Source of the DNA: an uncultured Spirochaetales bacterium
GTDB lineage: Bacteria > Spirochaetota > Spirochaetia > DSM-27196 > DATKUC01
DNA: 64,000 nt
Assembly (NCBI GenBank): GCA_964553615.1
Contig: CAZKMA010000021.1
Span: 4,402-68,401, forward strand
Direction: 5' to 3'
A program made the position numbers and the translations under genes. The notes below the pieces were generated by a model. That model was given only the letters and a program-made list of their open reading frames with translations. It searched no databases and was not told the origin of the DNA. Below are positions 21,135 to 35,512 of the stretch, one piece after another. Within the stretch, counting starts at the first letter, position 1. Each line of letters begins with the position of its first letter.

Positions 21135-22685
21135 ATGGAAGCGAAACGTCCGCACGGCTACAAGACAGTAGCGGTCATCGATATCGGCTCGACGGCAATC
21201 CGCATGGTCATAGCGGAGATCGACCCGGAAGGGGACTGGCGAAGGCTTGACCGGGCAGCGAAACCGCTCCCGCTCGGACGGGATGTATTCATGTCCGGAT
21301 ACCTCAGCCGGGAAACAATGCTCGGGGCGGTGAAAATTCTGACCGGATTTCTGGAACTGCTGTCCGGCTGGCACATAAGCCCCAGAGACGTGCGGGTAAT
21401 TGCGACCAGTGCCATCCGCGAGGCACGGAATCGGGATACCTTTGTTGACAGGGTTTCCATCCGGACCGGACTCCGTATCAACATCATAGAAGGCGTCGAA
21501 GAGAACCATCTCACCTATCTCGCGGTCCAGCATGCCGTAACCAACATGCAGGGACCGTTCGCCCGTTCGAGCTCCCTGATCATCGAGGTCGGTGGCGGGA
21601 CGACCGAGGTCATGATGCTGGATCGAGGAAAGATGGTCGCGGCGCACTCTTTCCGCATCGGGACTGTACGGATCGAACAGACGGTGAGGCCACGCTGGGA
21701 ATCCGGAAGCCAGATGGAAGAGTATCTCCGCGAAAATCTTCGGGGAACTCTGGAGATAATGAACACGGAGTTGAAGCTTGCGCGCATCCACTACTTTGTG
21801 GCAGTCGGTGGAGATGCACGCCTTGCCGCCTCCAATGTTGGGCGTCAGGAAGCGGAACATTACTGGCTCATCGACAAGAAGGCATTTAACGATTTCCTGA
21901 CGGAACTCGAAGAGCTTTCGGTCGATCAGATTGTGAGCAAACTCGCTGTAACATATAACGAGGCGGAAGGACTCGTGCCGGCACTTGTCATCTATCGTCT
22001 TTTTCTCGAGGCCACGAGCGCTACCCAGCTCATTGTTCCGGACGTCAGTATCCGAGAAGGAATGCTCGTCAGTTTCGCGCTCGGAACCGCGAAGGATGTC
22101 GAACAGCAGCTGTATGGCCAGGTCATCACATCCGCGATGAGTATTGGCCGAAAGTATCATTCGGACGAGAAACACGCGCTGCACGTCCGGAATCTGGCAC
22201 TATCATTTTTTGATCAGTTCCAGGCCGAACACGGGCTGGACGGACACTCCCGCCTTCTCATGGAAGTTGCGGCCATCCTGCACGACATCGGGAACTTCGT
22301 GCGCGCGAGTGGCCACCACAAGCATGGGCAATATCTGGTCGCGAATTCGGAGATTTTCGGGCTGTCGCGGGACGATATACGGATCATCTCCAACGTAATT
22401 CGCTATCATCGAAAATCAATGCCGTTGGCATCGCACAGTACCTTCATCTCTCTTCGCCAGGAACAACGGATTGTGGTTCAAAAGATTGCGGCAATGCTTC
22501 GCATTGCCGACGGACTGGATCGCAGCCATCTGCAGCGCGTGAAGTCAGTCCGGATCGAGGTGAAGGAGGGCGATCTCCTGGTCCACTGTGAGAACCACGG
22601 AGATATCTCGGTGGAGAAATACGGCATGCCGGCAAAGGCACAGATGTTCGAGGATGTGTTCGGATACAATGTTGTGATCACATAA
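21135..22685 (+). CDS. ppx: exopolyphosphatase / GppA phosphatase with C-terminal HD domain
   Basis: Ppx/GppA ASKHA fold (VAVIDIGSTAIRMVIAEI...ATSAIREARN...EVGGGTTE) and an HD region (AAILHDIGNFV..SGHHKHG). Confidence 0.9.
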   Translation: MEAKRPHGYKTVAVIDIGSTAIRMVIAEIDPEGDWRRLDRAAKPLPLGRDVFMSGYLSRETMLGAVKILTGFLELLSGWHISPRDVRVIATSAIREARNRDTFVDRVSIRTGLRINIIEGVEENHLTYLAVQHAVTNMQGPFARSSSLIIEVGGGTTEVMMLDRGKMVAAHSFRIGTVRIEQTVRPRWESGSQMEEYLRENLRGTLEIMNTELKLARIHYFVAVGGDARLAASNVGRQEAEHYWLIDKKAFNDFLTELEELSVDQIVSKLAVTYNEAEGLVPALVIYRLFLEATSATQLIVPDVSIREGMLVSFALGTAKDVEQQLYGQVITSAMSIGRKYHSDEKHALHVRNLALSFFDQFQAEHGLDGHSRLLMEVAAILHDIGNFVRASGHHKHGQYLVANSEIFGLSRDDIRIISNVIRYHRKSMPLASHSTFISLRQEQRIVVQKIAAMLRIADGLDRSHLQRVKSVRIEVKEGDLLVHCENHGDISVEKYGMPAKAQMFEDVFGYNVVIT

Positions 22686-22699
22686 GGGCAAGTTTAATT

Positions 22700-24868
22700 A
22701 TGGAAAATGTAGTTCGCAGGTACAAGAAGCACGAAGGGGGCCGCTACTTCAATCGGGAGTTGAGCTGGATCGAGTTCAACCGTCGGGTGTTGTCCGAGGC
22801 TATTCGACAGGACATCCCCCTTCTGGAACGGCTTCGATTTCTCTGCATTGTGGCATCAAATTTCGACGAGTTCTTCATGGTCAGGGTGGCATCTCTGAAG
22901 CGGCAGATTCAGACCCGGAACAAGGTTGTATGTCCGTCCGGAATGAGCCCCGAAGAGCAGTTGCGCGAAGTCATACAGCGAGTCCGAGAAATGGTTGCAA
23001 CGAAGTATGATTGCCTGCTGAACGACATCATGCCGAAACTCGGAGATGCCGGCCTTCTGCTCAAGACACCGGAGACGTATTCGCCGCAACAGAAGAGATA
23101 TCTGGAGGAGCTGTTTCGGGAGGAGATCTTTCCCGTTTTAACCCCCGTCCGATGCGAGCTTGGCAAACCTCTTCCCTATTCGGGAAATCTCCGGCTTCAT
23201 GCGGCGTTTCTGCTTCGACCGATCGTACGCGAACATCTTCTTATTCCCGAAGCGGGGGAGCTTTCGTTTGCCATTGTGCAGATTCCATCCGGTATACCGA
23301 GGATTCTCTACCTGCCGGATTCTGAAGGCTCAGTCTCTTTCGCTCTGCTCGAACACGTGGTTGTCGAACATGCAGCCCAGCTGTTCCCGGGTTACGAAAT
23401 TGTTGAAGACATCTTCTTCCGTGTAACACGCGACGCCGACCTGGGCGTGGACGAAGAACGCGATGAAGACTTTGTCGAGGCGATGACTCAGGTCCTCGAA
23501 TCTCGCCGATCCGGAATGGCAGTACGATTGAGCCTGAACAAACCCACTGCACGCTTGCGAAACATCCTTACCGAGGCACTTGGCCTGGACCCGTCCGAGG
23601 TGTATGTCAAAACAGACCCGATGGATCTGAGTACCTTCATGGAGCTGGTGGAATTACCGGGCTTTGATCATCTTCGGAACGAGAAGTGGATTCCGCAGGA
23701 TTCGCCCTATGTTCCCGAGGAAAGCTCCATCTGGGATGCAATCAAGAAGCAGGACATTCTTCTTCATCATCCCTTCGAATCGTTCGGTCCCGTAATTCGT
23801 CTGGTGCGGGAGTCTGCCGAGGATCCGGCTGTTCTTGCAATCAAAATGACACTGTACCGTACCAGCGGAACGTCGCCTATTGTGCACGCGCTGGAGCTCG
23901 CCGCTGAAAATGGGAAACAGGTGACCGTTCTCGTTGAACTCAAGGCACGATTTGATGAAGAGCAGAATATCGAATGGGCCCAGCGGCTGGAACGCGCAGG
24001 GGTCATTGTGGTGTACGGCATTGCGCGCTTGAAAGTGCACGCAAAGGCGCTTCTTATTATCCGGCGGGAGGAGAAAGGGATAACCCGTTACGTCCACCTC
24101 GGCACCGGCAACTATAACGACAAGACCGCGCGACTGTACACCGATCTTGGCCTCCTGACCGCAGATGATGATCTCGCCTACGAGGTTGGTCTGTTCTTCA
24201 ATTCCATTACCGGTTATTCCGCAATTCCCGCACTCAGTAAGCTCGTCATGGCGCCCACAGCGCTGAAGGGACGGTTGCTGCAGCTCATTGACCGGGAAGC
24301 TCAGAGGTCGACTCCGGAAAATCCCGGGGTGGTTATCCTCAAGCTGAATGCCCTTGCGGATCCGGACATCATAGAGGCGCTCTATCGCGCATCGGGCCTC
24401 GGAGTCAGAATCTCTCTCATCGTTCGTGGAATCTGTATGCTCGTTCCGGGAGTGCAGGAGATGAGCGAAAACATTACCGTCATGAGCGTCGTGGACCGGT
24501 ATCTGGAGCATTCGCGTCTCTACTACTTTTACAACGGCGGAGCCGAGGAAATATTTTGCGGCAGCGCGGATCTCATGCCGCGGAACCTCGAAAGACGCGT
24601 GGAGCTGCTGTTCCCTGTCGAAGATGCCGGACTGAAGAAGCGTATCAAGAAGGTTCTGGACACCTACCTGACCGACAGCTCGAACTCTCACATACTCCAG
24701 AAGGATGGAAGTTACGTCAGACGGGTGCCGGGGAGTGGCCCGGCAAAGCGATCTCAGCAGGTGCTCTACGATGCCGCCCGCAGCAGGGCGGACATCGTAG
24801 CTCCGGTCAATCGGAAAGAGTTCAATGTTCGCCGCAAGCCTTCCGCCTCCGGCCGTGCGCATGTCTAG
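22700..24868 (+). CDS. ppk: polyphosphate kinase 1
   Basis: YFNRELSWIEFNRRVLSEA at the N-terminus. Two PLD-like HKD-type domains (KVHAKALLI, YLEHSRLYYF). Full-length PPK1 layout. Confidence 0.95.
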   Translation: MENVVRRYKKHEGGRYFNRELSWIEFNRRVLSEAIRQDIPLLERLRFLCIVASNFDEFFMVRVASLKRQIQTRNKVVCPSGMSPEEQLREVIQRVREMVATKYDCLLNDIMPKLGDAGLLLKTPETYSPQQKRYLEELFREEIFPVLTPVRCELGKPLPYSGNLRLHAAFLLRPIVREHLLIPEAGELSFAIVQIPSGIPRILYLPDSEGSVSFALLEHVVVEHAAQLFPGYEIVEDIFFRVTRDADLGVDEERDEDFVEAMTQVLESRRSGMAVRLSLNKPTARLRNILTEALGLDPSEVYVKTDPMDLSTFMELVELPGFDHLRNEKWIPQDSPYVPEESSIWDAIKKQDILLHHPFESFGPVIRLVRESAEDPAVLAIKMTLYRTSGTSPIVHALELAAENGKQVTVLVELKARFDEEQNIEWAQRLERAGVIVVYGIARLKVHAKALLIIRREEKGITRYVHLGTGNYNDKTARLYTDLGLLTADDDLAYEVGLFFNSITGYSAIPALSKLVMAPTALKGRLLQLIDREAQRSTPENPGVVILKLNALADPDIIEALYRASGLGVRISLIVRGICMLVPGVQEMSENITVMSVVDRYLEHSRLYYFYNGGAEEIFCGSADLMPRNLERRVELLFPVEDAGLKKRIKKVLDTYLTDSSNSHILQKDGSYVRRVPGSGPAKRSQQVLYDAARSRADIVAPVNRKEFNVRRKPSASGRAHV

Positions 24869-24947
24869 CTCTTTCGGTATAAGCGACCGTGTTGATTTTT
24901 CGGCCTCCAGGTTGCGGATGTCTCGCCGTACCGTTAAAGTGACGAAT

Positions 24948-25370
24948 ATGGACCGTGAAGCATTACGCGAGGATCTCGAACACGCAATCAAGCTCACATT
25001 TTCCCGTTCCGGAGGCGCGGGAGGCCAAAACGTAAACAAGGTGAATACGCGAGTTACCGCGCGGGTTGAAATAGCCTCCCTGAAGTCGCTCTCTCCGGAT
25101 CAGATTGAGCGGATTCGCTCAGGGCTCTCCAATCGAGTGAACGAATTGGGAGAGCTCGTCATTCATGTAGGCGAAGAGCGATCCCAGCTCCGGAATCGCC
25201 AGATTGCAGTCGAACGGTTGGTTGAGCTACTCGTCTCATTCGGGAGACGACCACGAACGCGACGGCCTACCCGGCCCAGCCGTGCATCTCGCGAAACCCG
25301 GCTCCGAGGGAAGCGAAAGCAGAGCGTCAAGAAGCATCTTCGCAGCAATCATGGGCTGGACGAACAATGA
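24948..25370 (+). CDS. arfB: alternative ribosome-rescue factor ArfB (peptidyl-tRNA hydrolase, GGQ domain)
   Basis: RSGGAGGQNVNKVNT GGQ motif plus a basic C-terminal tail (RRPRTRRPTRPSRASRETRLRGKRKQSVKK). The ATG at 24948 is preferred over the track start, which overlaps ppk. Confidence 0.9.
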   Translation: MDREALREDLEHAIKLTFSRSGGAGGQNVNKVNTRVTARVEIASLKSLSPDQIERIRSGLSNRVNELGELVIHVGEERSQLRNRQIAVERLVELLVSFGRRPRTRRPTRPSRASRETRLRGKRKQSVKKHLRSNHGLDEQ

Positions 25371-26260: not shown

Positions 26261-26394
26261 ATCACGGAATAAGTGGATTTGATGTTGTTTCTTTGTGCAT
26301 AATTTATCCAAAAAACAAAAAGAGAACAATATCTCATTTTCTGCTTGATTCATTGAGGATTGTGTTGTATCCTCCTCTAACGAGGAGACATGTT

Positions 26395-26883
26395 ATGGCT
26401 GAGGAAACGATTGTCGAAAAATCACAGTTTCTGACGTTCACGCTCGATCAGGAGCAGTATGCGATTGACGTGGCAAAAGTGAAGGAAGTCCTTGAGTATA
26501 CGAACGTTACACGCGTACCGCGAACCCAGGAGTTTATGCGCGGCGTAATAAACTTGCGCGGCAGCGTCGTTCCGGTAATCGATTTGCGGATGAAGTTTGG
26601 AATGGACAAGACGGAAACGACCATCGACACGTCTATTGTTGTTGTAGAGGTGGAGATAGACGGTGAAACAGTAGTCCTGGGTACGCTGGCAGATTCCGTC
26701 CAGGAGGTCGTCGATCTGGACAGGAATCAGATAGAGCCGGCGCCGCAAATCGGGACAAAGATCAATACCAGCTTTATTCAGGGAATCGGCAAACAGGATG
26801 AGCACTTCATTATCATTCTCAATATTGACCGGGTTTTCACGGATGCGGAAATCCTGAATGTCGCCGAACACGCGACGGCATGA
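26395..26883 (+). CDS. cheW: chemotaxis coupling protein CheW
   Basis: QFLTFTLDQEQYAIDVAKVKEVLEY..VTRVPRTQEFMRGVINLRGSVVPVIDLR is a canonical CheW domain. The ATG at 26395 follows an AT-rich promoter region. Confidence 0.9.
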   Translation: MAEETIVEKSQFLTFTLDQEQYAIDVAKVKEVLEYTNVTRVPRTQEFMRGVINLRGSVVPVIDLRMKFGMDKTETTIDTSIVVVEVEIDGETVVLGTLADSVQEVVDLDRNQIEPAPQIGTKINTSFIQGIGKQDEHFIIILNIDRVFTDAEILNVAEHATA

Positions 26884-26903: not shown

Positions 26904-27731
26904 TTATCTGACGAGTGCAGACAGGAGTGCCGCTATCACGGCGCCTGTCGCGCAACTCGCAATATTCACCACGTCGTTGTTCACGCCTGATAGCCCGCGG
27001 ATACGTATGTTCTTTGTGCCATCTCCACGGGTTTTTCGTTCGGTTATTCTGCCGGTGGATTCATCCCGGTACGTCGCCTGGATGGTGGCACCGATCACGC
27101 TGTCCACGATTGAGCCCGCGAAACCACTTCCTGTAACAATTCCCACAATCAAGAGGTCGCGGGGCCGGAACGACCAGCTGTTCGTCGCGAGGAGTCCTAT
27201 TCCGTAGATGAGGCCGATGAACAGGGCGCCGAGGAGCGCCGCGACTGTTCCGAATGCCGTTACTCCACCGGACATTCCGGCGGGAACGGCGCGGCCGGAG
27301 ATTATGGACACGGGACGTTGCCGGGAAAGCATTCCAATCTCCGTGGCCCAGGTGTCGGCGTTCGCCTCGGCAAACGATGCGGCAAGTGCGGCGAGCCATA
27401 TGGTGTTGCCGCTCAGCGCGTAGATTGTTGCGGCAAGGAACCCGATGCCGCCGTTCGCCATGACCTGCAGACTGTCTCTGCGATCGCCTTTTTCAATCAT
27501 GACCGCAGACGATTCCTTCCGTGCCCTGCCAATCCTGCTGAGAATCGAGGAAGAGAGGAAGAACGCGCCGAGGACAGTCCACGCCGACCAGCCGGAGAAT
27601 ATGAGAATCCCGGCGCTTACGAGGAATCCGACTGCGGCTCCTCCCGCGGTAACCGCCTTTCTCCAGTATGCGCCTGCGGCCAGCAGAAGATTTACCGCGA
27701 CGATCGTTACAAATGAAACTGGCGATAGCAT
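26904..27731 (-). CDS. DUF92/TMEM19 family membrane protein (VTE6 phytyl-phosphate kinase family)
   Basis: Polytopic Gly/Ala-rich protein with the DUF92-like blocks ...FAEANADTWATEIG... and ...GVNNDVVN.... Its start overlaps the upstream kinase gene's stop by 1 nt. Confidence 0.65.
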   Translation of the reverse strand: MLSPVSFVTIVAVNLLLAAGAYWRKAVTAGGAAVGFLVSAGILIFSGWSAWTVLGAFFLSSSILSRIGRARKESSAVMIEKGDRRDSLQVMANGGIGFLAATIYALSGNTIWLAALAASFAEANADTWATEIGMLSRQRPVSIISGRAVPAGMSGGVTAFGTVAALLGALFIGLIYGIGLLATNSWSFRPRDLLIVGIVTGSGFAGSIVDSVIGATIQATYRDESTGRITERKTRGDGTKNIRIRGLSGVNNDVVNIASCATGAVIAALLSALVR

Positions 27732-28414
27732 CAGACCCTCGCCAGGTTGAACAGCACGGTGGTCAGAATGGGCACGGTCAGATTGTCCAGGCCGAATGGT
27801 GTCAAAACCTCAATAGCGGTGGCAGTTGCCGCCACTTTGACCGATGTCAGAATGATTGAGTCAATTCCGCCGGCGAAGGAAAAGACCGAGAGTACTCCGA
27901 TTGATACGAGGAGGGATGCCAGAAACATGGCAACCGTTCCGCGAACAGATTTGAAGGTCCCAAAACCGAAGACTGTGAATCTCAGCCTGGAGCTTCTCCT
28001 GCCGATCAGCGCCGCCATTCCGTCTCCCCATCCCATGATCAGGACTCCGAGAGCGCCGGTATAGACAGGGAATACTCCTCCGAAAGTCAGGAATACCAGC
28101 ACGAGAAGGGAAACCGGATAGTAGATTGTGCCGAGACTTGCACGTGCCGCCTCGGAATCCAGTGCGGAAAACAGAGGCCGTTTCAGCGCGAACAGATTGA
28201 ACGCAATGAAGAACAGCGGGCCAATCGCCGCCACCCACGGTTTGTGGTGGAAGAGCATTGCAATGATCCACCAGTGTGCAACTCCAATGTGAACGATCTT
28301 CCGTCCCGTGTCGCCATCTATCTGATTTCGGTGGATGAGAATTTGAACGAAGCCGAGAAGAGAAAATATGAAAACAAATGAAACGAGGATGCCAAGAATG
28401 TCACGCATACCCAC
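27731..28414 (-). CDS. CTP-dependent polyprenol (phytol/dolichol) kinase family membrane protein (VTE5-like)
   Basis: Polytopic. RKIVHIG and the C-terminal MGWGDGMAALIGRR motif are typical of the phytol kinase/dolichol kinase/CDS-related family. Confidence 0.7.
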   Translation of the reverse strand: MGMRDILGILVSFVFIFSLLGFVQILIHRNQIDGDTGRKIVHIGVAHWWIIAMLFHHKPWVAAIGPLFFIAFNLFALKRPLFSALDSEAARASLGTIYYPVSLLVLVFLTFGGVFPVYTGALGVLIMGWGDGMAALIGRRSSRLRFTVFGFGTFKSVRGTVAMFLASLLVSIGVLSVFSFAGGIDSIILTSVKVAATATAIEVLTPFGLDNLTVPILTTVLFNLARV

Positions 28415-28470
28415 GCATTGTAGCGAGCTTGCACAAGCGGTGCAATTGATCTATTCTGAAGGGGATTCCA

Positions 28471-29217
28471 ATGGCAGTTCAAGATAAACAAAAACGGCTG
28501 GCTGTGCTCATCGATGCAGATAACACCCAACCATCAATCATTGAGGCATTGCTCGAAGAGATCGCCAAATACGGCGTATCGAGTGTGCGCAGGATCTACG
28601 GAGACTGGACGAGTCCCAATCTCAAGGGATGGAAAGACGTTCTTCTCGAGTATGCAATCCAGCCGATTCAACAATTTGCATATACCCGTGGCAAAAACGC
28701 CACCGACAGCGCGATGATCATCGACGCGATGGACTTGCTGTACACCGACAAATTTGACGGTTTCTGCATCGTCTCGAGTGACAGTGATTTCACGCGTCTG
28801 TCGGCGCGCGTACGCGAGTCGGGACTCACCGTCTACGGGTTCGGCGAACAAAAGACTCCGAAGGCGTTTGTCGGTGCATGCGACAAGTTCATCTATACCG
28901 AAATTCTTCGAAAGCGGGATGAAAAAGAGCCCGAAGTTCGCAAGGCACCAAGCTCGAAAGAGCTGAAGAGCGACACGCGGCTGGTCACGCTGCTACGAAA
29001 TGCGGTTGAGGACTCTGCCGACGAGAACGGATGGGCGCACCTGGGTACGGTCGGTCAGAATCTTGCAAACCGCGCTCCTGAGTTCGATCCCCGGAACTAC
29101 GGCTACAAGAAGCTTGGAGATCTCATTCGAGCGACCGGCCTGTTCGAAATTGATGAGCGATCCGCAGAAAACTCCCCGGCAAAAAATCTGTATGTGCGGG
29201 ATATTCGACGGCGGTAA
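28471..29217 (+). CDS. NYN (LabA-like) nuclease domain + OST-HTH/LOTUS domain protein
   Basis: N-terminal LAVLIDADNT...GKNATDSAMIIDAMDLLY...FCIVSSDSDFTRLSARVRESG (NYN/DUF88). C-terminal WAHLGTVGQNLANRAPEFDPRNYGYKKLGDLI (OST-HTH). Confidence 0.85.
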   Translation: MAVQDKQKRLAVLIDADNTQPSIIEALLEEIAKYGVSSVRRIYGDWTSPNLKGWKDVLLEYAIQPIQQFAYTRGKNATDSAMIIDAMDLLYTDKFDGFCIVSSDSDFTRLSARVRESGLTVYGFGEQKTPKAFVGACDKFIYTEILRKRDEKEPEVRKAPSSKELKSDTRLVTLLRNAVEDSADENGWAHLGTVGQNLANRAPEFDPRNYGYKKLGDLIRATGLFEIDERSAENSPAKNLYVRDIRRR

Positions 29218-29220
29218 CGA

Positions 29221-29649
29221 ATGGCATTCATGAAAAGACGCAGTAGCCGATCGGATGAGCGGGCGCGTTTGATCGAGCGCGGATTTCGACTGCGATCGCT
29301 CGACATTCTTGCAATTGCCCTGGCGCTCGGTGTGGTTGTGCTCTTTTCCGTAAACGCGTACACCGGATCAGGAAACAGCAGCGAGGTAATTGTCCAGGCG
29401 GATGGGAAGGACTTTCTCTATCCGCTCAATCAGGATACCGAGTTCAAGGTAACCGGTCCCATCGGAAAAACTACCATTCAGATCAAGAACCATTCCGTCC
29501 GCGTTGTTGATTCGCCCTGTCGCGACAAGATCTGCATTGCCGCGGGGTGGCTCTCTCACACCGGTCAGTGGACTGCCTGTCTTCCCAATCGTGTCTTTGT
29601 CAGAGTTGAGGGTGGAAAGCCGGCCACGGTGGATGCTCAGACCTTCTGA
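29221..29649 (+). CDS. NusG domain II-containing protein (DUF1312-like), N-terminal TM anchor
   Basis: A TM helix (ILAIALALGVVVLF) is followed by ...IVQADGKDFLYPLNQD...IKNHSVRVVDSPCRDKICI..GWLSHTGQWTACLPNRVFVRVEG, the C-x3-C...C pattern of NusG_II proteins found next to flavinylation genes. Confidence 0.7.
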   Translation: MAFMKRRSSRSDERARLIERGFRLRSLDILAIALALGVVVLFSVNAYTGSGNSSEVIVQADGKDFLYPLNQDTEFKVTGPIGKTTIQIKNHSVRVVDSPCRDKICIAAGWLSHTGQWTACLPNRVFVRVEGGKPATVDAQTF

Positions 29650-29785
29650 TCCGACCGCCCTTTGACGTCTGGGCACACGCAGTTGCGGACCTGTCTTTCA
29701 GCACTATCATCCTTTTTGTAAGCAATCTCAATTGCATTTCACCTGGTTACCTCCATGCCGCAGTCAACGTCCATCTCGAAATGGT

Positions 29786-29814
29786 TTGACATATGCCGAG
29801 AAACAGGATAGGAT
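29786..29814 (+). promoter_or_regulatory. sigma70-like promoter of the FMN_bind gene (TTGACA-17 nt-TAGGAT)
   Basis: Consensus -35 TTGACA at 29786-29791, a 17-nt spacer and TAGGAT at 29809-29814, about 45 nt upstream of the ATG. Confidence 0.55.
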
Positions 29815-29859
29815 AAAATTATACCCAATTCACATCATAGCTTACCACGGGAGGAGAAT

Positions 29860-30693
29860 ATGAAGCGGCTAATGGTAGTCATGCTGTTGCTCGCAGTCGC
29901 ATTTGCGGCGTTTGCGAACGGCGAGAAGGAGAAGGGCGCTATCGGCTCTTCTGGGGCCCTGAAGGACGGAAGCTATTTTGCGACCTACACGACCGCAGAC
30001 AATCACGGCTGGCAGCCGTTCATGCGGATCGAGGTTGCCGGAGGTAAAATCGCTTCGGTTGCATACAACTATGTGAGTCCGGACGGAAAGATGTTCAAGA
30101 CTCAGGACAATCAGTACAACACAACCATGCTGAAGTTTGCCGGAACGAATCCTGAGAAGGCATACCCGGAGCTTGAAAAGCGGATAATATCCGCCCAGTC
30201 CGGCAAGATAGACGCGGTAACCGGGGCTACGCACTCGAGTGAAACCGCCATGGAGCTTGCTTCCGATCTTGTTTCTCGCGCCGGGACAGGAAATACCGCC
30301 GATCTGGTTCTGCCTATGACGGGAATGTATACGGCGGAAGACAAGCCGGACGAGCACGGCGGGTGGATCGGTCATCTTGAGGTGACATTCGGCGATCAGG
30401 GGAAGGTCACGAAGGTGGTCTACGACGAGGTCAAGAAAGAGAATAACAAGATTGTCGCCTACAAAAGCAAGGACATGGAATACGAGAAGAACTTCAAGGC
30501 CAAGAGCGGCATCAGTCAGGGAGAAGCTTACACCAGGCTGAGTGCCGAGCTGACGGCGACCGCCAAACTGAATACCGTTGATGCGGTCACGGGTGCCACA
30601 GGAACGAGTGAGCGGTTTAACGCGCTTGTGGAAAATATCAAGATGCAGCGGACAGGTGTTGCGCCTTCGGCAATAAAGGCGATGCTCAAGTAG
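29860..30693 (+). CDS. secreted protein with two FMN_bind domains (PplA-like flavinylation substrate)
   Basis: Type-I signal peptide (LLAVAFAAFANG). There are two repeats, each containing the ApbE target motif D-A-V-T-G-A-T (DAVTGATHSS at 30211-30240 and DAVTGATGTS at 30580-30609). Confidence 0.85.
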   Translation: MKRLMVVMLLLAVAFAAFANGEKEKGAIGSSGALKDGSYFATYTTADNHGWQPFMRIEVAGGKIASVAYNYVSPDGKMFKTQDNQYNTTMLKFAGTNPEKAYPELEKRIISAQSGKIDAVTGATHSSETAMELASDLVSRAGTGNTADLVLPMTGMYTAEDKPDEHGGWIGHLEVTFGDQGKVTKVVYDEVKKENNKIVAYKSKDMEYEKNFKAKSGISQGEAYTRLSAELTATAKLNTVDAVTGATGTSERFNALVENIKMQRTGVAPSAIKAMLK

Positions 30694-30719
30694 CCTGGAA
30701 TTGCTCCGCAGAGATCGCC

Positions 30720-30769
30720 ATGGCCGTTGTCCTCCGATGTCCTGCACCGGAGGCAACGGCCATTCTTTC
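30720..30769. terminator. long hairpin between convergent FMN_bind and apbE genes (probable bidirectional terminator)
   Basis: atggccgttg(t)cctcc ... ggagg caacggccat forms a ~15-bp stem with one bulge, followed by tctttc on the + strand. Confidence 0.55.
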
Positions 30770-30788
30770 GGCGTGTGTTCTCAGACTC

Positions 30789-31925
30789 TCAGTTTGTTAC
30801 GTTGTCCGCCTTTTCTATCTGATCAATGGTGGAAACGGGGGGCGTATAATTCGGACCGGCTGCTGCGGTGGAAATATCCTCGATGTGGTAATCGGAGTTG
30901 GTGAGGGTGAACTTCCCATCCAGGCCGGGAGTGTAGTAGACCTTCTTGTTGTCGGTCACAAATATGGCATCGACACCCTTCATGTCACGGATCAGTTTAT
31001 AGCCATTTTCAAGCCCAAGCACGAATACCGATGTCGAAAGTCCGTCACAGATCATGGATACGTTGCTGTAGATCGTGGTGCTGGTCAGATGGTCCTGCAC
31101 CGGATAACCTGTCTTCGGGTTGATAATGTGGTGATACATGACTCCGTTCCTGATGAAGTAACGTTCGTACGGTCCCGAGGTAACGACCGACATATTTGTT
31201 GCGTTAACGATACCGAGGTAGCCACCGCGCGGGGCAAACGGTGTCTGGATTCCGATGCGCCAGGGCTTCCCGTCTGGTTTCGCGCCCATTACCAGGATGT
31301 TGCCGCCGAAATCGAGGATGGCGTGTTTGACCCCTTCCTTGATGAGAATCTGTTCAGCCTGGTCTGCAGCGTATCCCTTGGCGATGCCACCCAGATCGAT
31401 TCCCATCCCTTTCTTCTCCAGATACACGGAGTGATCGGCTTCATTCAATTTTATCCAGTGCCAGTTCACCAGAGGAAGCAGTTTCTTGATCTCTTCCGGG
31501 GATGGAAGTTGTTCATGATCGGTGCCGATGCCCCATAGTTTTACGATGGGTCCGACCGAGATATCGAAGGCACCGTCAGTCAACTTGCTGAATTCGAGTG
31601 CCGTCTTTATTACGTCGAAGACGTCTGGGGTTACCTGTACCGGTTTGATGCCGGCATTCCTGTTTATTTCGACAACTTCGCTGCTGTTTCCTTCCGTTGT
31701 CATGCGGTTATGAATGTCGCGCACGCGGGCAAACGCTTTTTCGAGAACCGAGGGGTCTACCCGATCGTACACGGTCATGGTAATGGTGGTGCCAAGAAGC
31801 AGTTCCGTGCGGGAAAATGGCTTCGTGGATGTCCTGCTGCCACATCCAGTGACCAATACCAGAGTGAGGGTAGCCACGCCCAGCAGCGCAGCCGTTGTCC
31901 AGCGAAACGGTGTTACTCTGTTCAT
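30789..31925 (-). CDS. apbE: FAD:protein FMN transferase (ApbE/Ftp), lipoprotein
   Basis: Lipobox LVLVTGC. ApbE blocks are present (TMTVYD...RDIHNRMT...GAFDISVGPIVKLWG..., GIAKGYAADQ, VVTSGPYERYF). It also has a ~40-aa C-terminal extension. Confidence 0.9.
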   Translation of the reverse strand: MNRVTPFRWTTAALLGVATLTLVLVTGCGSRTSTKPFSRTELLLGTTITMTVYDRVDPSVLEKAFARVRDIHNRMTTEGNSSEVVEINRNAGIKPVQVTPDVFDVIKTALEFSKLTDGAFDISVGPIVKLWGIGTDHEQLPSPEEIKKLLPLVNWHWIKLNEADHSVYLEKKGMGIDLGGIAKGYAADQAEQILIKEGVKHAILDFGGNILVMGAKPDGKPWRIGIQTPFAPRGGYLGIVNATNMSVVTSGPYERYFIRNGVMYHHIINPKTGYPVQDHLTSTTIYSNVSMICDGLSTSVFVLGLENGYKLIRDMKGVDAIFVTDNKKVYYTPGLDGKFTLTNSDYHIEDISTAAAGPNYTPPVSTIDQIEKADNVTN

Positions 31926-31938
31926 GATAGAACTATTA

Positions 31939-32029
31939 GTACCATATTTATCGAATTGAGGTCAATGTATTACTCTTTTAGCAAGTAAAAAGTGATAACT
32001 GACTTGCGTTAATTCGATAAACATGGTAC
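31939..32029. promoter_or_regulatory. 19-nt inverted repeat pair (GTACCATATTTATCGAATT / AATTCGATAAACATGGTAC) in the apbE-ndh divergent promoter region
   Basis: The arms at 31939-31957 and 32011-32029 match at 18/19 positions as reverse complements and are separated by 53 nt. Each arm overlaps the spacer and -10 of a predicted outward-facing promoter. Confidence 0.6.
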
Positions 32030-32091
32030 GATAATTTTATACCGAAACATCACCATCTTTTTGGGAAACCAAAATCAGCGGAGGCCGCAGT

Positions 32092-34269
32092 ATGGCAGAG
32101 AAGACACGTATTGCTGTGTTAGGAGCCGGTTACGCCGGCATAGCTGCTACGAAACTGCTCTACAAGAGGTACAAGAAGAACCCCAACGTAGAGATCAGTA
32201 TTATCGACCGGAACCCGTACCACACCCTCATGACGGAGCTTCACGAAATTGCCGGGTCCAGAACCGAGCCTGGGGCAGTTCAGGTGAGCCTGGCGAAGAT
32301 CTTCGGCGGGAAACGCATGAAGGTCGTCATTGACGAAATCGATACGATTGAGTTCGAACAGAACAAACTTGTGTCGAAATTAACTGAATACCCCTACGAC
32401 TATCTCATCATCGGCGCCGGCGCTGAGCCGGAATTCTTTGGAACGCCCGGTGTCCAGGAGCATTCCTTTACCTGCTGGTCCCTGGAGGATGCAATTCGCA
32501 TTCGCGTCCACGTAGAAGACATGTTTCGCGAGGCAGCCAAGGAGCCGAACGAGTCGAGGCGCAGAGAACTGCTGACATTTGTACTGGCTGGGGCGGGGTT
32601 TACCGGCGTTGAGCTTGCCGGAGAACTTCTCGAGCGGCGCGATGTGTTGTGCGAGCAATATCATATCAACCCCAAAGAGGTCCGGGTCGTCATTGTTGAA
32701 ATGAAAGACACGATCCTGCCAATTCTGCCGGAATGGCCACAGAAGAAGGCTGAAAAGTACCTCCAGAAACGTGGCGCAGAAATCATGCTCAATGCTCCGG
32801 TAGCGGAGGCTTCAGAGGGTTCTGTACGGGTTGCCGGCGATCACGACCTCGAGATCCGTACCGAAACCTTTATCTGGACCTGCGGAGTTCACGGGTCCGA
32901 GTTCACTTCGAAGATTGAGCTGACCAAGGGGAACTGTTCGCCTGACCACGGAGCGGTTGCTTCAATCGAGGGTATTCACGGCATGGCCGGATGCCATTTC
33001 GACGACGACGAACGGTATGTCGTCGGAGAGCGCGGTCGGATCAGTGTAAACAAATACTGTCAGTCCGTGGACTTCGACAACGTCTATCTCGTCGGGGACG
33101 TCATGTGGTACGTTATTGGCGACAAGGTCGTGCCGCAGATAGTCGAGACGGCGTTGCAGTCAGGAGAAGTCACTGCCAGGAATATCATCACGGATATTGA
33201 GGGTGGTGAGAAAGAGGGCTTCAATCCGAAGTACCACGGATTCATGGTTTCAATCGGCGGGCGGTATGGTGTAGCTCACGGCATGGGGATGTCGTTTTCC
33301 GGGTTCATGGCCATGTCTGCAAAGCACCTCATTAACCTGCATTATCTGCTCGGACTTGCGGGAATTAACGCCGTGTGGGAATACATGCAGCACGAGTTTT
33401 TCACAATGAAGGACCGGCGCAGTTTTATCGGTGGACACCTGTCATGGAAGATTCCGTCCTATTGGGCCTTTCCGCTTCGATTGTGGCTCGGCGGAAAATG
33501 GCTTTACGAGGGAATCAAGAAGGTCACCGAAGGCTGGCTCAATCCCGGCAAGGAGGGACTCGCGCACGTATGGTCAGGAGCCATTCGAATGCCTGGTGTG
33601 AGTTTTGCTGCCGAGGCAACGTCCGCAGCAACGGCTGCGACGGGGGCAGCGGCGGGACACGTTGCGCAGGCGGCAACGAGTGCTGCGGCAAATGCGACCT
33701 CGGCAGCGACGGCGGTTGCACAAGCTGCACCGGCAGCCGCTCAGGCGGCGGCTGACGCAACATCGGCAGCAACTGGGGCAGTAGCCGGCGCGGTAGCCGG
33801 TGCGGCACACACTGCCGCAGCTGCGGCCTCCTCCTACGGGCAGGCACTGAGCGGCCCATGGGGCGTGTACACCTGGTTTGCCCACAATGTCCTCAGCGCT
33901 TCGCCGCTGCTGGCGTTTCTTCTGCAGGCCGTCGTTGTCATAGTTGAGATCGGCCTTGGACTTGCGTTCGTTGGTGGAGCCTTCACCTGGCTTGCCGCTG
34001 TCGTATCCATTCTCATTGGCGTAATGTTCATCGCCTCAGGATGGGGAAGTCCGGAGCTGCTCTGGTACATGTTCGGCGCTCTCGTCATGATGGGTGGTGC
34101 CGGGCGCGCTCTCGGCCTCGATCACTGGATCATGCCGTGGCTGAAGGGCTGGTGGAACGGTACCCGGTTTGCCAAGCGCACCTACCTCTACACCGATGAA
34201 CCGCACGATCGATGGAACGGAAAGCGAGCAAGTCGACCGCAATCCAACATTTCTGTGTCATCACGATAG
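32092..34269 (+). CDS. ndh: type II NADH dehydrogenase (NDH-2) fused to a C-terminal DoxX/DoxD-like membrane domain
   Basis: Two Rossmann motifs (IAVLGAGYAGIA and FVLAGAGFTGVELAGEL) and the NDH-2 C-terminal blocks up to ~aa 430. These are followed by WLGGKWLYEGIKKVTEGW, an Ala-rich linker and then ...VEIGLGLAFVGGAFTWLAAV...MMGGAGRALGLDHW, which is DoxX-like. Confidence 0.8.
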   Translation: MAEKTRIAVLGAGYAGIAATKLLYKRYKKNPNVEISIIDRNPYHTLMTELHEIAGSRTEPGAVQVSLAKIFGGKRMKVVIDEIDTIEFEQNKLVSKLTEYPYDYLIIGAGAEPEFFGTPGVQEHSFTCWSLEDAIRIRVHVEDMFREAAKEPNESRRRELLTFVLAGAGFTGVELAGELLERRDVLCEQYHINPKEVRVVIVEMKDTILPILPEWPQKKAEKYLQKRGAEIMLNAPVAEASEGSVRVAGDHDLEIRTETFIWTCGVHGSEFTSKIELTKGNCSPDHGAVASIEGIHGMAGCHFDDDERYVVGERGRISVNKYCQSVDFDNVYLVGDVMWYVIGDKVVPQIVETALQSGEVTARNIITDIEGGEKEGFNPKYHGFMVSIGGRYGVAHGMGMSFSGFMAMSAKHLINLHYLLGLAGINAVWEYMQHEFFTMKDRRSFIGGHLSWKIPSYWAFPLRLWLGGKWLYEGIKKVTEGWLNPGKEGLAHVWSGAIRMPGVSFAAEATSAATAATGAAAGHVAQAATSAAANATSAATAVAQAAPAAAQAAADATSAATGAVAGAVAGAAHTAAAAASSYGQALSGPWGVYTWFAHNVLSASPLLAFLLQAVVVIVEIGLGLAFVGGAFTWLAAVVSILIGVMFIASGWGSPELLWYMFGALVMMGGAGRALGLDHWIMPWLKGWWNGTRFAKRTYLYTDEPHDRWNGKRASRPQSNISVSSR
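33607..33834 (+). repeat. Ala/Thr/Ser low-complexity coding tract inside the ndh fusion gene
   Basis: Translates to AAEATSAATAATGAAAGHVAQAATSAAANATSAATAVAQAAPAAAQAAADATSAATGAVAGAVAGAAHTAAAAASS. The nucleotides are GCN-rich with reiterated gcagc/gcggc units. Confidence 0.8.
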
Positions 34270-34320
34270 TCTGCATTGTAGAACCCGGAAAATCTTAGTA
34301 CATTACATAACGGGAATCAT

Positions 34321-34346
34321 GCGGCCGGAATCCTCCGGCCGCTTTT
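34321..34346 (+). terminator. Rho-independent terminator after ndh
   Basis: Perfect 9-bp stem gcggccgga / tccggccgc with loop atcc, followed by TTTT. It lies only 38 nt upstream of the next ATG. Confidence 0.8.
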
Positions 34347-34384
34347 AGCAAATACGTGGCACACTGCTGCGGACGGGATGGAGA

Positions 34385-35512
34385 ATGACGCACTTCTGGG
34401 ATGACTTCCCGGCTATTCAACATGATCTGGAACGTGTCCATGATGTCATTCTGGACAATGTTCGCAGCCGGAACGTGACTATCACCCGCGCATTGACAAA
34501 TCTTGCGAATCGGAACGGAAAGTTGCTCCGGCCCGGGTTCGTGCTGTTGAGCGCTCGCCTGAAGGGCGACCTCATGAACGGAAATGACGGCAACGGGACG
34601 ATGGGCAATTTCGTGGAAAATGGCGATTTCGTCGGAAACGGCGGTTTCGTTGGAAACGGTCATGGATTTTCGGCCGAAGCAGCGGAATCCGGTCGTGGTG
34701 CCCGCACAGTTGCCGAAATACGGCCACTTCCGGAGAAGATCTACAAAATTGCCGCGTCCGTCGAGATGCTGCACATGGCGACCCTCATTCACGACGACGT
34801 GATAGACGAGGCCAACAACCGCCGCGGTCAACCGACGGTTCACGTCGAATACGGCAAGAAAGAGGCCATTCTGATGGGTGACTACCTCTTCAGCCGGACC
34901 TATCGGCTTCTTGCCGACAATACCAGCATCGAGAACGCAAAACGGCTTGCTCTGGTCGTGAGCCAGATTGTAGCCGGCGAAATCGATCAGTCTATTCCCG
35001 GCGAGCAGATCAGCTACGGACCGCGAACCTATATTCGCCGAGTCGTCGGAAAGACTGCCACCCTCATAGCCGATAGCTTCTATCTCGGAGCTTCGGAAGC
35101 CGATATGGGCCTTGCCCGGAGTACCTATCTCAGGCGGATTGGATACAGCATCGGGATGGCGTTCCAGATAATCGACGATATTCTCGATTTCACCGGTTCG
35201 GCCGATGTGCTCGGGAAGGCGCCGGGTTCCGACCTCCGTCAGGGAGTTGTGACGCTGCCACTCATCTACGCAATGCGCGCAAACGGCAAGGACGTTATCT
35301 GGAAAAGACTCTACACCCCGGAGAGGCTTACGAGTTCCGACTTGACCGCAATTATCGAGGCAATAGACCGGGAGGGCGGGTTCGCCATGGCCCGGGACAA
35401 AGCGGAGCAGTATACCCGCCGTGCTCTACGCCAGATCGCGTTTCTCCCACGCGGCGAGAACAAAGACGTACTGGCAGCGGTGGCCAGAAAGCTTCTCGAT
35501 CGTACCTACTGA
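34385..35512 (+). CDS. long-chain polyprenyl diphosphate synthase (hepta/octaprenyl type) with Gly/Asn/Phe repeat insertion
   Basis: FARM LIHDDVIDEANNRRG and SARM FQIIDDILDF are both present, as is KLLRPGFVLLSARL. A ~50-aa insertion precedes the FARM helix. Confidence 0.9.
   Translation: MTHFWDDFPAIQHDLERVHDVILDNVRSRNVTITRALTNLANRNGKLLRPGFVLLSARLKGDLMNGNDGNGTMGNFVENGDFVGNGGFVGNGHGFSAEAAESGRGARTVAEIRPLPEKIYKIAASVEMLHMATLIHDDVIDEANNRRGQPTVHVEYGKKEAILMGDYLFSRTYRLLADNTSIENAKRLALVVSQIVAGEIDQSIPGEQISYGPRTYIRRVVGKTATLIADSFYLGASEADMGLARSTYLRRIGYSIGMAFQIIDDILDFTGSADVLGKAPGSDLRQGVVTLPLIYAMRANGKDVIWKRLYTPERLTSSDLTAIIEAIDREGGFAMARDKAEQYTRRALRQIAFLPRGENKDVLAAVARKLLDRTY
34604..34675 (+). repeat. in-frame 18-nt tandem repeat (3 good copies + 1 degenerate) inside the polyprenyl synthase gene
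   Basis: ggcaatttcgtggaaaat / ggcgatttcgtcggaaac / ggcggtttcgttggaaac / ggtcatggattttcggcc encode GNFVEN GDFVGN GGFVGN GHGFSA. Confidence 0.85.

Follow-up and report, generated by a model that had tools for sequence, protein, structure and literature searches.

A pair of translationally coupled genes, encoding two predicted lipid kinases of the isoprenoid pathway, was identified in the window (the whole 64,000-nucleotide stretch of DNA analysed here, from a probable spirochaete). The best reading of this pair, and one that we consider fairly likely to be correct, is a two-step pathway from prenol through prenyl monophosphate to prenyl diphosphate that feeds prenyl-diphosphate consumers. This reading is favoured in part because the pair adjoins, in one genome or another, crtI-crtB, polyprenyl synthase or MenA-like UbiA genes, and the products of all of these genes are users of prenyl diphosphates.

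Both ORFs are real genes and not chance ORFs, since 448 homologs of the upstream protein (in a 90% cluster database) and 364 homologs of the downstream protein were found. The initial annotation had described two ORFs abutting at nt 27731, and this is what the minus strand holds: base 27731 is common to the TGA stop codon of the upstream gene (27733-27731) and the ATG start codon of the downstream gene (27731-27729), giving a one-base overlap of the TGATG type. The junction reads GCG AGG GTC TGA TG CTA TCG, with a Shine-Dalgarno-like GAGGG run at 27740-27736 that lies within the upstream gene, 4 nt ahead of the downstream ATG. For the upstream gene, the gene callers used on identical metagenome contigs picked ATG 28408, two codons after the GTG, which gives a protein of 225 aa and is likely the start of the gene. 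The NYN/OST-HTH gene is divergent from the pair and the CheW gene is convergent with it, and the kinase and DUF92 genes therefore form a two-gene unit (Table 1). The promoter of the unit is presumably held in the 56-bp divergent region. A scan of consensus promoters and terminators returned sites no more numerous than in shuffled sequences. A TACAAT hexamer occupies minus-strand positions 28422-28417, 8 nt ahead of ATG 28408; it would be compatible with a 5' leader that is very short or lacking, and a search for a -35 element belonging to it found none.

Table 1. Features of the kinase/DUF92 pair and its surroundings, in window coordinates.
Feature	Position	Strand	Remarks
CheW gene	26293-26883		Convergent with the kinase/DUF92 pair
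Downstream DUF92 gene (PF01940/COG1836)	26904-27731	minus	275 aa membrane protein
Coupling junction	27729-27740	minus	GAGGG Shine-Dalgarno-like run, then TGATG (from sequence)
Upstream kinase-type gene	27731-28414	minus	227 aa from GTG 28414; TGA stop 27733-27731
Divergent intergenic region	28415-28470		56 bp, between the kinase gene and the NYN/OST-HTH gene (from sequence)
NYN/OST-HTH gene	28471-29217		Divergent from the kinase/DUF92 pair
NusG_II	29221-29649	plus	Pfam/NCBIfam
PplA-like FMN-binding lipoprotein	29860-30693	plus	PplA model 138.8 bits, below the 325 cut-off (NCBIfam)
ApbE flavin transferase	30789-31925	minus	Pfam/NCBIfam
NDH-2 with C-terminal membrane extension	32092-34269	plus	Pfam/NCBIfam
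HepT-like long-chain polyprenyl diphosphate synthase	34385-35512	plus	Pfam/NCBIfam

The two genes are genuinely paired, and the pairing is highly conserved. A scan that took one genome for each GTDB species recovered at least 582 proteins related to the upstream one, and the best 80 loci were kept. A DUF92 gene lies directly downstream on the same strand in 78 of these 80 loci; one of the two exceptions is at a contig edge, and the other, from Sphaerochaetaceae, has no DUF92 gene within 6 kb. The hosts belong to Spirochaetota, Clostridia, Tissierellales, Eubacterium, Erysipelotrichaceae, Christensenellaceae, Thermotogota, Acholeplasmataceae and other Mycoplasmatota, and no lineage with known phototrophs is behind any of the 80 loci. 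Among the related loci, 28 have an ATGA/GTGA overlap of 4 nt and two a TGATG overlap like that of the window; in about 25 the genes are separated by 1-22 nt, and in about 18 they are fused in frame. The fusions were verified with Pfam on proteins of 479-594 aa and occupy several separate positions in a neighbour-joining tree. In an exhaustive profile search, the upstream family comprises 9114 representatives at E ≤ 1e-3, and 40 of the best 150 of these are of fusion length (413-597 aa). Athalassotoga saccharophila, for example, carries a natural kinase/DUF92 fusion of 481 aa. Conserved adjacency in non-photosynthetic genomes, which had been put forward as a check on the initial annotation, is thus borne out by the 78 of 80 loci and the frequent fusions. 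It has almost no likelihood that the two genes are unrelated membrane proteins standing side by side by chance. The operon gave no promoter or terminator signal in our scan and DUF92 stands alone in some genomes, as such a view would have it, but order and strand are kept in those 78 loci over several phyla, start/stop overlaps are common and fusions recur independently. With such fusions and such conservation, chance adjacency is in effect refuted, and we rejected it.

Not every DUF92 gene is paired with a kinase gene: those of Bacillus and Oscillochloris have no kinase neighbour, and the DUF92 family may for this reason have other roles as well. The sole find of a tblastn search against plasmids was a distant kinase homolog (29% identity) in Brevibacillus laterosporus (NZ_CP011076.1, L088:3923-5242), where it lies within an unannotated ORF of 439 aa. 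Around this ORF are DUF3419, PPDK-like, GNAT and AMP-binding genes, and DUF92 is missing from the vicinity; remoter members of the kinase family therefore have other contexts.

The upstream gene had been assigned to the CTP-dependent phytol/dolichol kinase family, and the names of its homologs, a conserved R-K-x-x-H clamp and a fold match to TmCdsA support this assignment. Many homologs bear the label 'phytol kinase' at JGI and 'diacylglycerol/polyprenol kinase family protein' at NCBI, labels that are annotations and not experiments. An alignment of 32 homologs contains the invariant residues R38, K39 and H42, G130, D131 and G132, K155 and S156, E202, and D210 and N211, and the motif MGWGDGMAALIGRR given in the initial annotation is present at residues 127-140. 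The spacing of R38-K39-x-x-H42 equals that of the Arg29-Lys30-His33 'charged clamp' of PfPolK, the validated prenol kinase of Plasmodium (PMC10849223). The AF2 model of the upstream protein (pLDDT 93) is all-helical with 13 helical segments, and its best fold match in the PDB is the CDP-DAG synthase TmCdsA (4Q2E/4Q2G), with a probability of 0.99-1.0 and a TM-score of about 0.35. The TM-scores of the fold matches are low (0.31-0.37); the modelled fold is nevertheless polytopic and CdsA-like. Because of these homolog names, the large family, the R-K-x-x-H and other invariant residues and the TmCdsA-like model, the upstream protein is supported, at the level of sequence and model, as a putative polytopic membrane protein of the CTP-dependent prenol kinase type (VTE5/FOLK/PolK/Sec59-like).

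Curated profiles gave a different kind of answer. Scans of the upstream protein against Pfam and NCBIfam returned zero matches even at E ≤ 10, and PF01148 was touched by just one of 32 homologs (E = 0.0046). A sequence search of the PDB, with the single upstream sequence and with the profile of its family, gave no match. Curated HMMs for CTP-dependent prenol/dolichol kinases (COG0170; PF01148 superfamily) accordingly do not recognise the protein, nor do Pfam and NCBIfam assign it to any other family. Assignment to a different family by HMM, which would have refuted the initial annotation, was thus not seen, although no Pfam or NCBIfam model matched the upstream protein. The subfamily of the upstream protein lies outside the coverage of the Pfam and NCBIfam models.

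The downstream protein had been described as a DUF92 protein, the family of VTE6, and here the HMM evidence is unequivocal. The Pfam DUF92 model (PF01940) matches it with E = 6e-63 and 213 bits, compared with a gathering cut-off of 27.5, and residues 13-264 align to positions 2-251 of the 251-position profile, practically the full length of the model. The NCBIfam equivalog TIGR00297 scores 97.3 bits, below its cut-off of 205.85. Judged by these profile scores, the protein is a Pfam DUF92 member but not an equivalog by the NCBI criterion. In most DUF92 homologs, a zinc-ribbon-like C-x-x-C ... H-x-C motif is found in the loop ahead of the last helix. All of these cysteines (residues about 221-240) are lost from the window DUF92 protein, its closest relatives and some members from Chloroflexota.

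The AF2 model of the DUF92 protein has a pLDDT of 94.7, and the top three PDB matches in Foldseek are again TmCdsA, weakly, with probabilities of 0.6-0.8. Such a match raises the question of whether DUF92 could be a cytidylyltransferase that transfers CMP from CTP onto prenyl phosphate and yields a CDP-activated prenol, as CdsA and CarS would suggest. COG1836 has been reported to belong, distantly, to the cytidylyltransferase superfamily, being similar to pfam01148 by HHpred (97.6%) and with conserved metal-binding aspartates (Makarova, Galperin, Koonin 2015; PMC5898192), and the window protein retains the invariant D126 and D253. We consider this reading highly improbable, as VTE6 is described as a phytyl-phosphate kinase that makes phytyl-PP (PMC5745509, PMC9782597), the neighbouring phytoene synthase, polyprenyl synthase and MenA-like proteins take diphosphates and not CDP-alcohols, and the profile comparison between the kinase and DUF92 families is weak. 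In that comparison, hhalign of the upstream and DUF92 profiles gave a probability of 25% and E = 7.6e-4, with GWGDG..IG aligned to NADTWATEIG, and the cross-profile hmmsearch between the two families was marginal. Paralogy of the two genes is not claimed, in view of these two results.

All neighbouring ORFs of the loci were clustered and annotated, and two contexts emerged. The commonest context of the pair family-wide is a phytoene synthase/desaturase operon. In 21 of the 80 loci, a CrtB-like phytoene synthase gene runs directly up to the start of the kinase gene, with hosts in Eubacterium, Thermotogota, Acholeplasmataceae, Erysipelotrichaceae, Leptospirales, Sediminispirochaeta and Tissierellales. 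A gene for a CrtI-family desaturase is upstream in 16 loci, and a photolyase gene immediately follows DUF92 in nine. A polyprenyl (CrtE-type) synthase was not detected in the examined flanks of 18 of the 21 crtB-containing loci. Carriers of the crtI-crtB-kinase-DUF92 operon include Eubacterium limosum and E. callanderi. Tight operons of this order are seen in non-phototrophic Eubacterium, Acholeplasmataceae and Thermotogota (L018:3633-7430, L066:3572-8853 and L067:3068-7446), and further loci with the same genes are L015, L020, L039, L055, L056, L062, L072 and L074, often with photolyase next. A Tocopherol_cycl-like protein is encoded near the pair in 12 loci. Pfam Tocopherol_cycl matches (E = 6e-21, to the C-terminal half of the model) lie beside the pair at L072:1556-2530(-) and L067:8932-9969, and proteins of this type also occur at L038, L045, L046, L055, L062, L066, L071, L074, L077 and L082. 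None of these neighbours has an NCBIfam match, and they might be carotenoid hydratases/cyclases rather than chromanol cyclases.

The second context is that of the window itself, which belongs to a Spirochaetaceae clade with NYN, NusG_II, ApbE, NDH-2 and polyprenyl synthase genes as clade neighbours. Neighbours of the NusG_II/ApbE/NDH-2/synthase type are found at 8-15 of 38 spirochaete loci and are nearly absent from the other lineages. L001, a syntenic relative, also has a UbiA gene (MenA-like) and an ABC transporter. UbiA, CrtB and CrtI genes were all absent from the 64-kb window. The pair had been placed 1.5 kb from a polyprenyl synthase/quinone locus; this holds for the start of the cluster, which is 0.8-1.5 kb away and consists there of the NusG_II gene (29221) and the PplA-like gene (29860), and not for the synthase (34385-35512), which is about 6 kb off. 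In its gene content, region 29221-35512 is similar to the flavin-based extracellular electron transfer locus of the Listeria type, in which PplA, ApbE/FmnB, a specialised NDH-2, DmkA (UbiA) and DmkB (polyprenyl synthase) are encoded together. ApbE, NDH-2, NusG_II, HepT-like synthase and PplA-like genes are present in the window, the last with a score below the cut-off of the PplA model, whereas UbiA is absent from it. Gene context suggests a functional link between the pair and this flavin-based electron-transfer/quinone locus, and the association, confined to the clade of the window, may be inherited synteny.

Two further features of the window were observed. The NDH-2 (32092-34269) is a 725-aa protein whose oxidoreductase domain is followed by a roughly 100-residue Ala/Thr/Ser-rich low-complexity stretch and then by hydrophobic segments; these C-terminal segments are probably transmembrane, and the extension is unusual. 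At window positions 21135-25370, a Ppx/GppA-like gene (identified from the ORF sequence only) and a polyphosphate kinase 1 gene are followed by an RF-1-domain (ArfB-like) ORF that begins at 24825, within ppk, which ends at 24868, and the two share 44 nt. The gene order ppk, RF-1, thyX, cheW is kept in the relatives L001 and L083.

The long-chain polyprenyl synthase that neighbours the pair in the window could also speak for carrier-lipid recycling. The upstream protein would then be an undecaprenol/dolichol-type kinase that regenerates polyprenyl phosphate for envelope glycans, with DUF92 in an accessory or different role. The kinase family is related to the dolichol kinase Sec59, and the conserved archaeal context of DUF92 is uppS (PMC5898192). 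We nevertheless regard recycling of this kind as improbable. A monophosphate suffices for it, which leaves an obligatorily coupled or fused second enzyme unexplained; the pair is also found in the wall-less Acholeplasmataceae and other Mycoplasmatota; and crtB and crtI, not envelope genes, dominate as context, with uppS absent among the recurrent neighbours.

Recycling of carrier lipids, cytidylyl transfer and chance adjacency are all less likely than the two-step kinase pathway. Under the two-step pathway, the pair would be a bicistronic, translationally coupled operon for two successive lipid kinases. The upstream CdsA-fold enzyme, probably CTP-dependent, would convert a prenol to prenyl monophosphate, with farnesol, geranylgeraniol, phytol or a longer prenol as candidate substrates. 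The DUF92 enzyme would then phosphorylate this monophosphate once more, and the resulting prenyl diphosphate is what prenyltransferases and head-to-head synthases use. Coupling or fusion of the genes would secure stoichiometric co-production of both enzymes. The sink would probably be the side chain of a long-chain quinone in the window organism and phytoene/carotenoid synthesis in most other lineages. The kinase chemistry, nucleotide donor, chain length of the substrate and sink are all predictions in this scheme, and points against it are the upstream protein without an HMM match, the low TM-scores, the DUF92 score below the TIGR00297 cut-off, the DUF92 genes that have no kinase neighbour and the window without UbiA, CrtB or CrtI. 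A bolder proposal is that, in many anaerobic non-phototrophs, the kinase/DUF92 pair and not a CrtE-type GGPP synthase is the dedicated source of C15/C20 diphosphate for phytoene synthase, and in the spirochaete clade of the window would serve quinone prenylation instead; we think that this is unlikely.

The two families have known counterparts. VTE5 is a phytol kinase and VTE6 a phytyl-phosphate kinase, both experimentally characterised (reviewed in PMC9782597 and PMC5745509). As with VTE5 and VTE6 of Arabidopsis and Synechocystis, the same two families occur here in the same order, a CTP-type prenol kinase followed by a DUF92 prenyl-phosphate kinase. In contrast to those systems, the hosts of the window pair and of all 80 loci come from lineages without known phototrophs, and chlorophyll-derived phytol is therefore not an internal substrate. 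The genes here also differ in being overlapped or fused, in an upstream subfamily that escapes detection by PF01148 and in a DUF92 protein below the TIGR00297 cut-off. Like FOLK of Arabidopsis and PolK of Plasmodium falciparum, the upstream protein has the R-K-x-x-H clamp and is predicted to be a small polytopic all-helical membrane protein (PMC10849223); eight TM helices are reported for PfPolK (PMC10849223). Farnesol and geranylgeraniol would be the expected substrates, as for FOLK and PolK (PMC10849223). No partner second kinase has been identified for FOLK and PolK, whereas in the window the adjacent gene encodes a candidate partner.

For COG1836, a role in 'phytol-phosphate metabolism' had been predicted through the comparative genomics of SEED, mainly from prokaryotic gene clustering (Gerdes et al. 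2011, PMC3223725). Archaeal Sec59-like/DUF92 fusions, arCOG02245, have also been described, for example Mbar_A3310 (Makarova, Galperin and Koonin 2015, PMC5898192). In the bacterial fusions, as in these, the N-terminal half is dolichol-kinase-like and the C-terminal half is DUF92, and the same kinase step in isoprenoid metabolism is proposed for both. Unlike arCOG02245, which is archaeal and has uppS as its context, the genes described here are bacterial, mostly split but coupled, and set in crtB/crtI or quinone/electron-transfer contexts. Two-step prenol phosphorylation in a non-phototrophic prokaryote was reported in 1996 (cited in PMC9385802); unlike the window pair, those activities, in the passage that cites them, are biochemical and come without assigned genes. 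The prediction for COG1836 (2011), the characterisation of VTE6 and the archaeal fusions (2015) came before the present analysis, and the window pair is therefore a bacterial addition to a known two-enzyme system and not a new kind of system. In the searchable literature, we found no mention of how widely the pair occurs in lineages without known phototrophs, or of the embedding of the pair in crtI-crtB operons, an absence that is no proof of novelty in either case. The salvage of farnesol and geranylgeraniol was called a 'missing pathway' in a 2022 review (PMC9782597), and according to a 2024 paper its enzymes had yet to be identified in animals and in other organisms that are not plants (PMC10849223).

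For the window, the analysis gives a confident functional annotation of the pair, as predicted from sequence. The compact bacterial pairs and natural fusions are convenient candidates for the biochemistry and structural analysis of both kinase steps, and kinase/DUF92 pairs could be used in metabolic engineering to feed prenols into terpenoid pathways. The recurrent seat of the pair in carotenoid operons gives it a concrete, testable physiological role. If the pair does replace the CrtE-type synthase as proposed above, pigment or quinone synthesis in these anaerobes would be driven by the salvage of exogenous or recycled prenols, such as geranylgeraniol or phytol set free in sediments and guts from chlorophyll or from the lipids of archaea, and the crtI-crtB-kinase-DUF92(-photolyase) operon would represent a previously undescribed architecture of carotenoid cluster.
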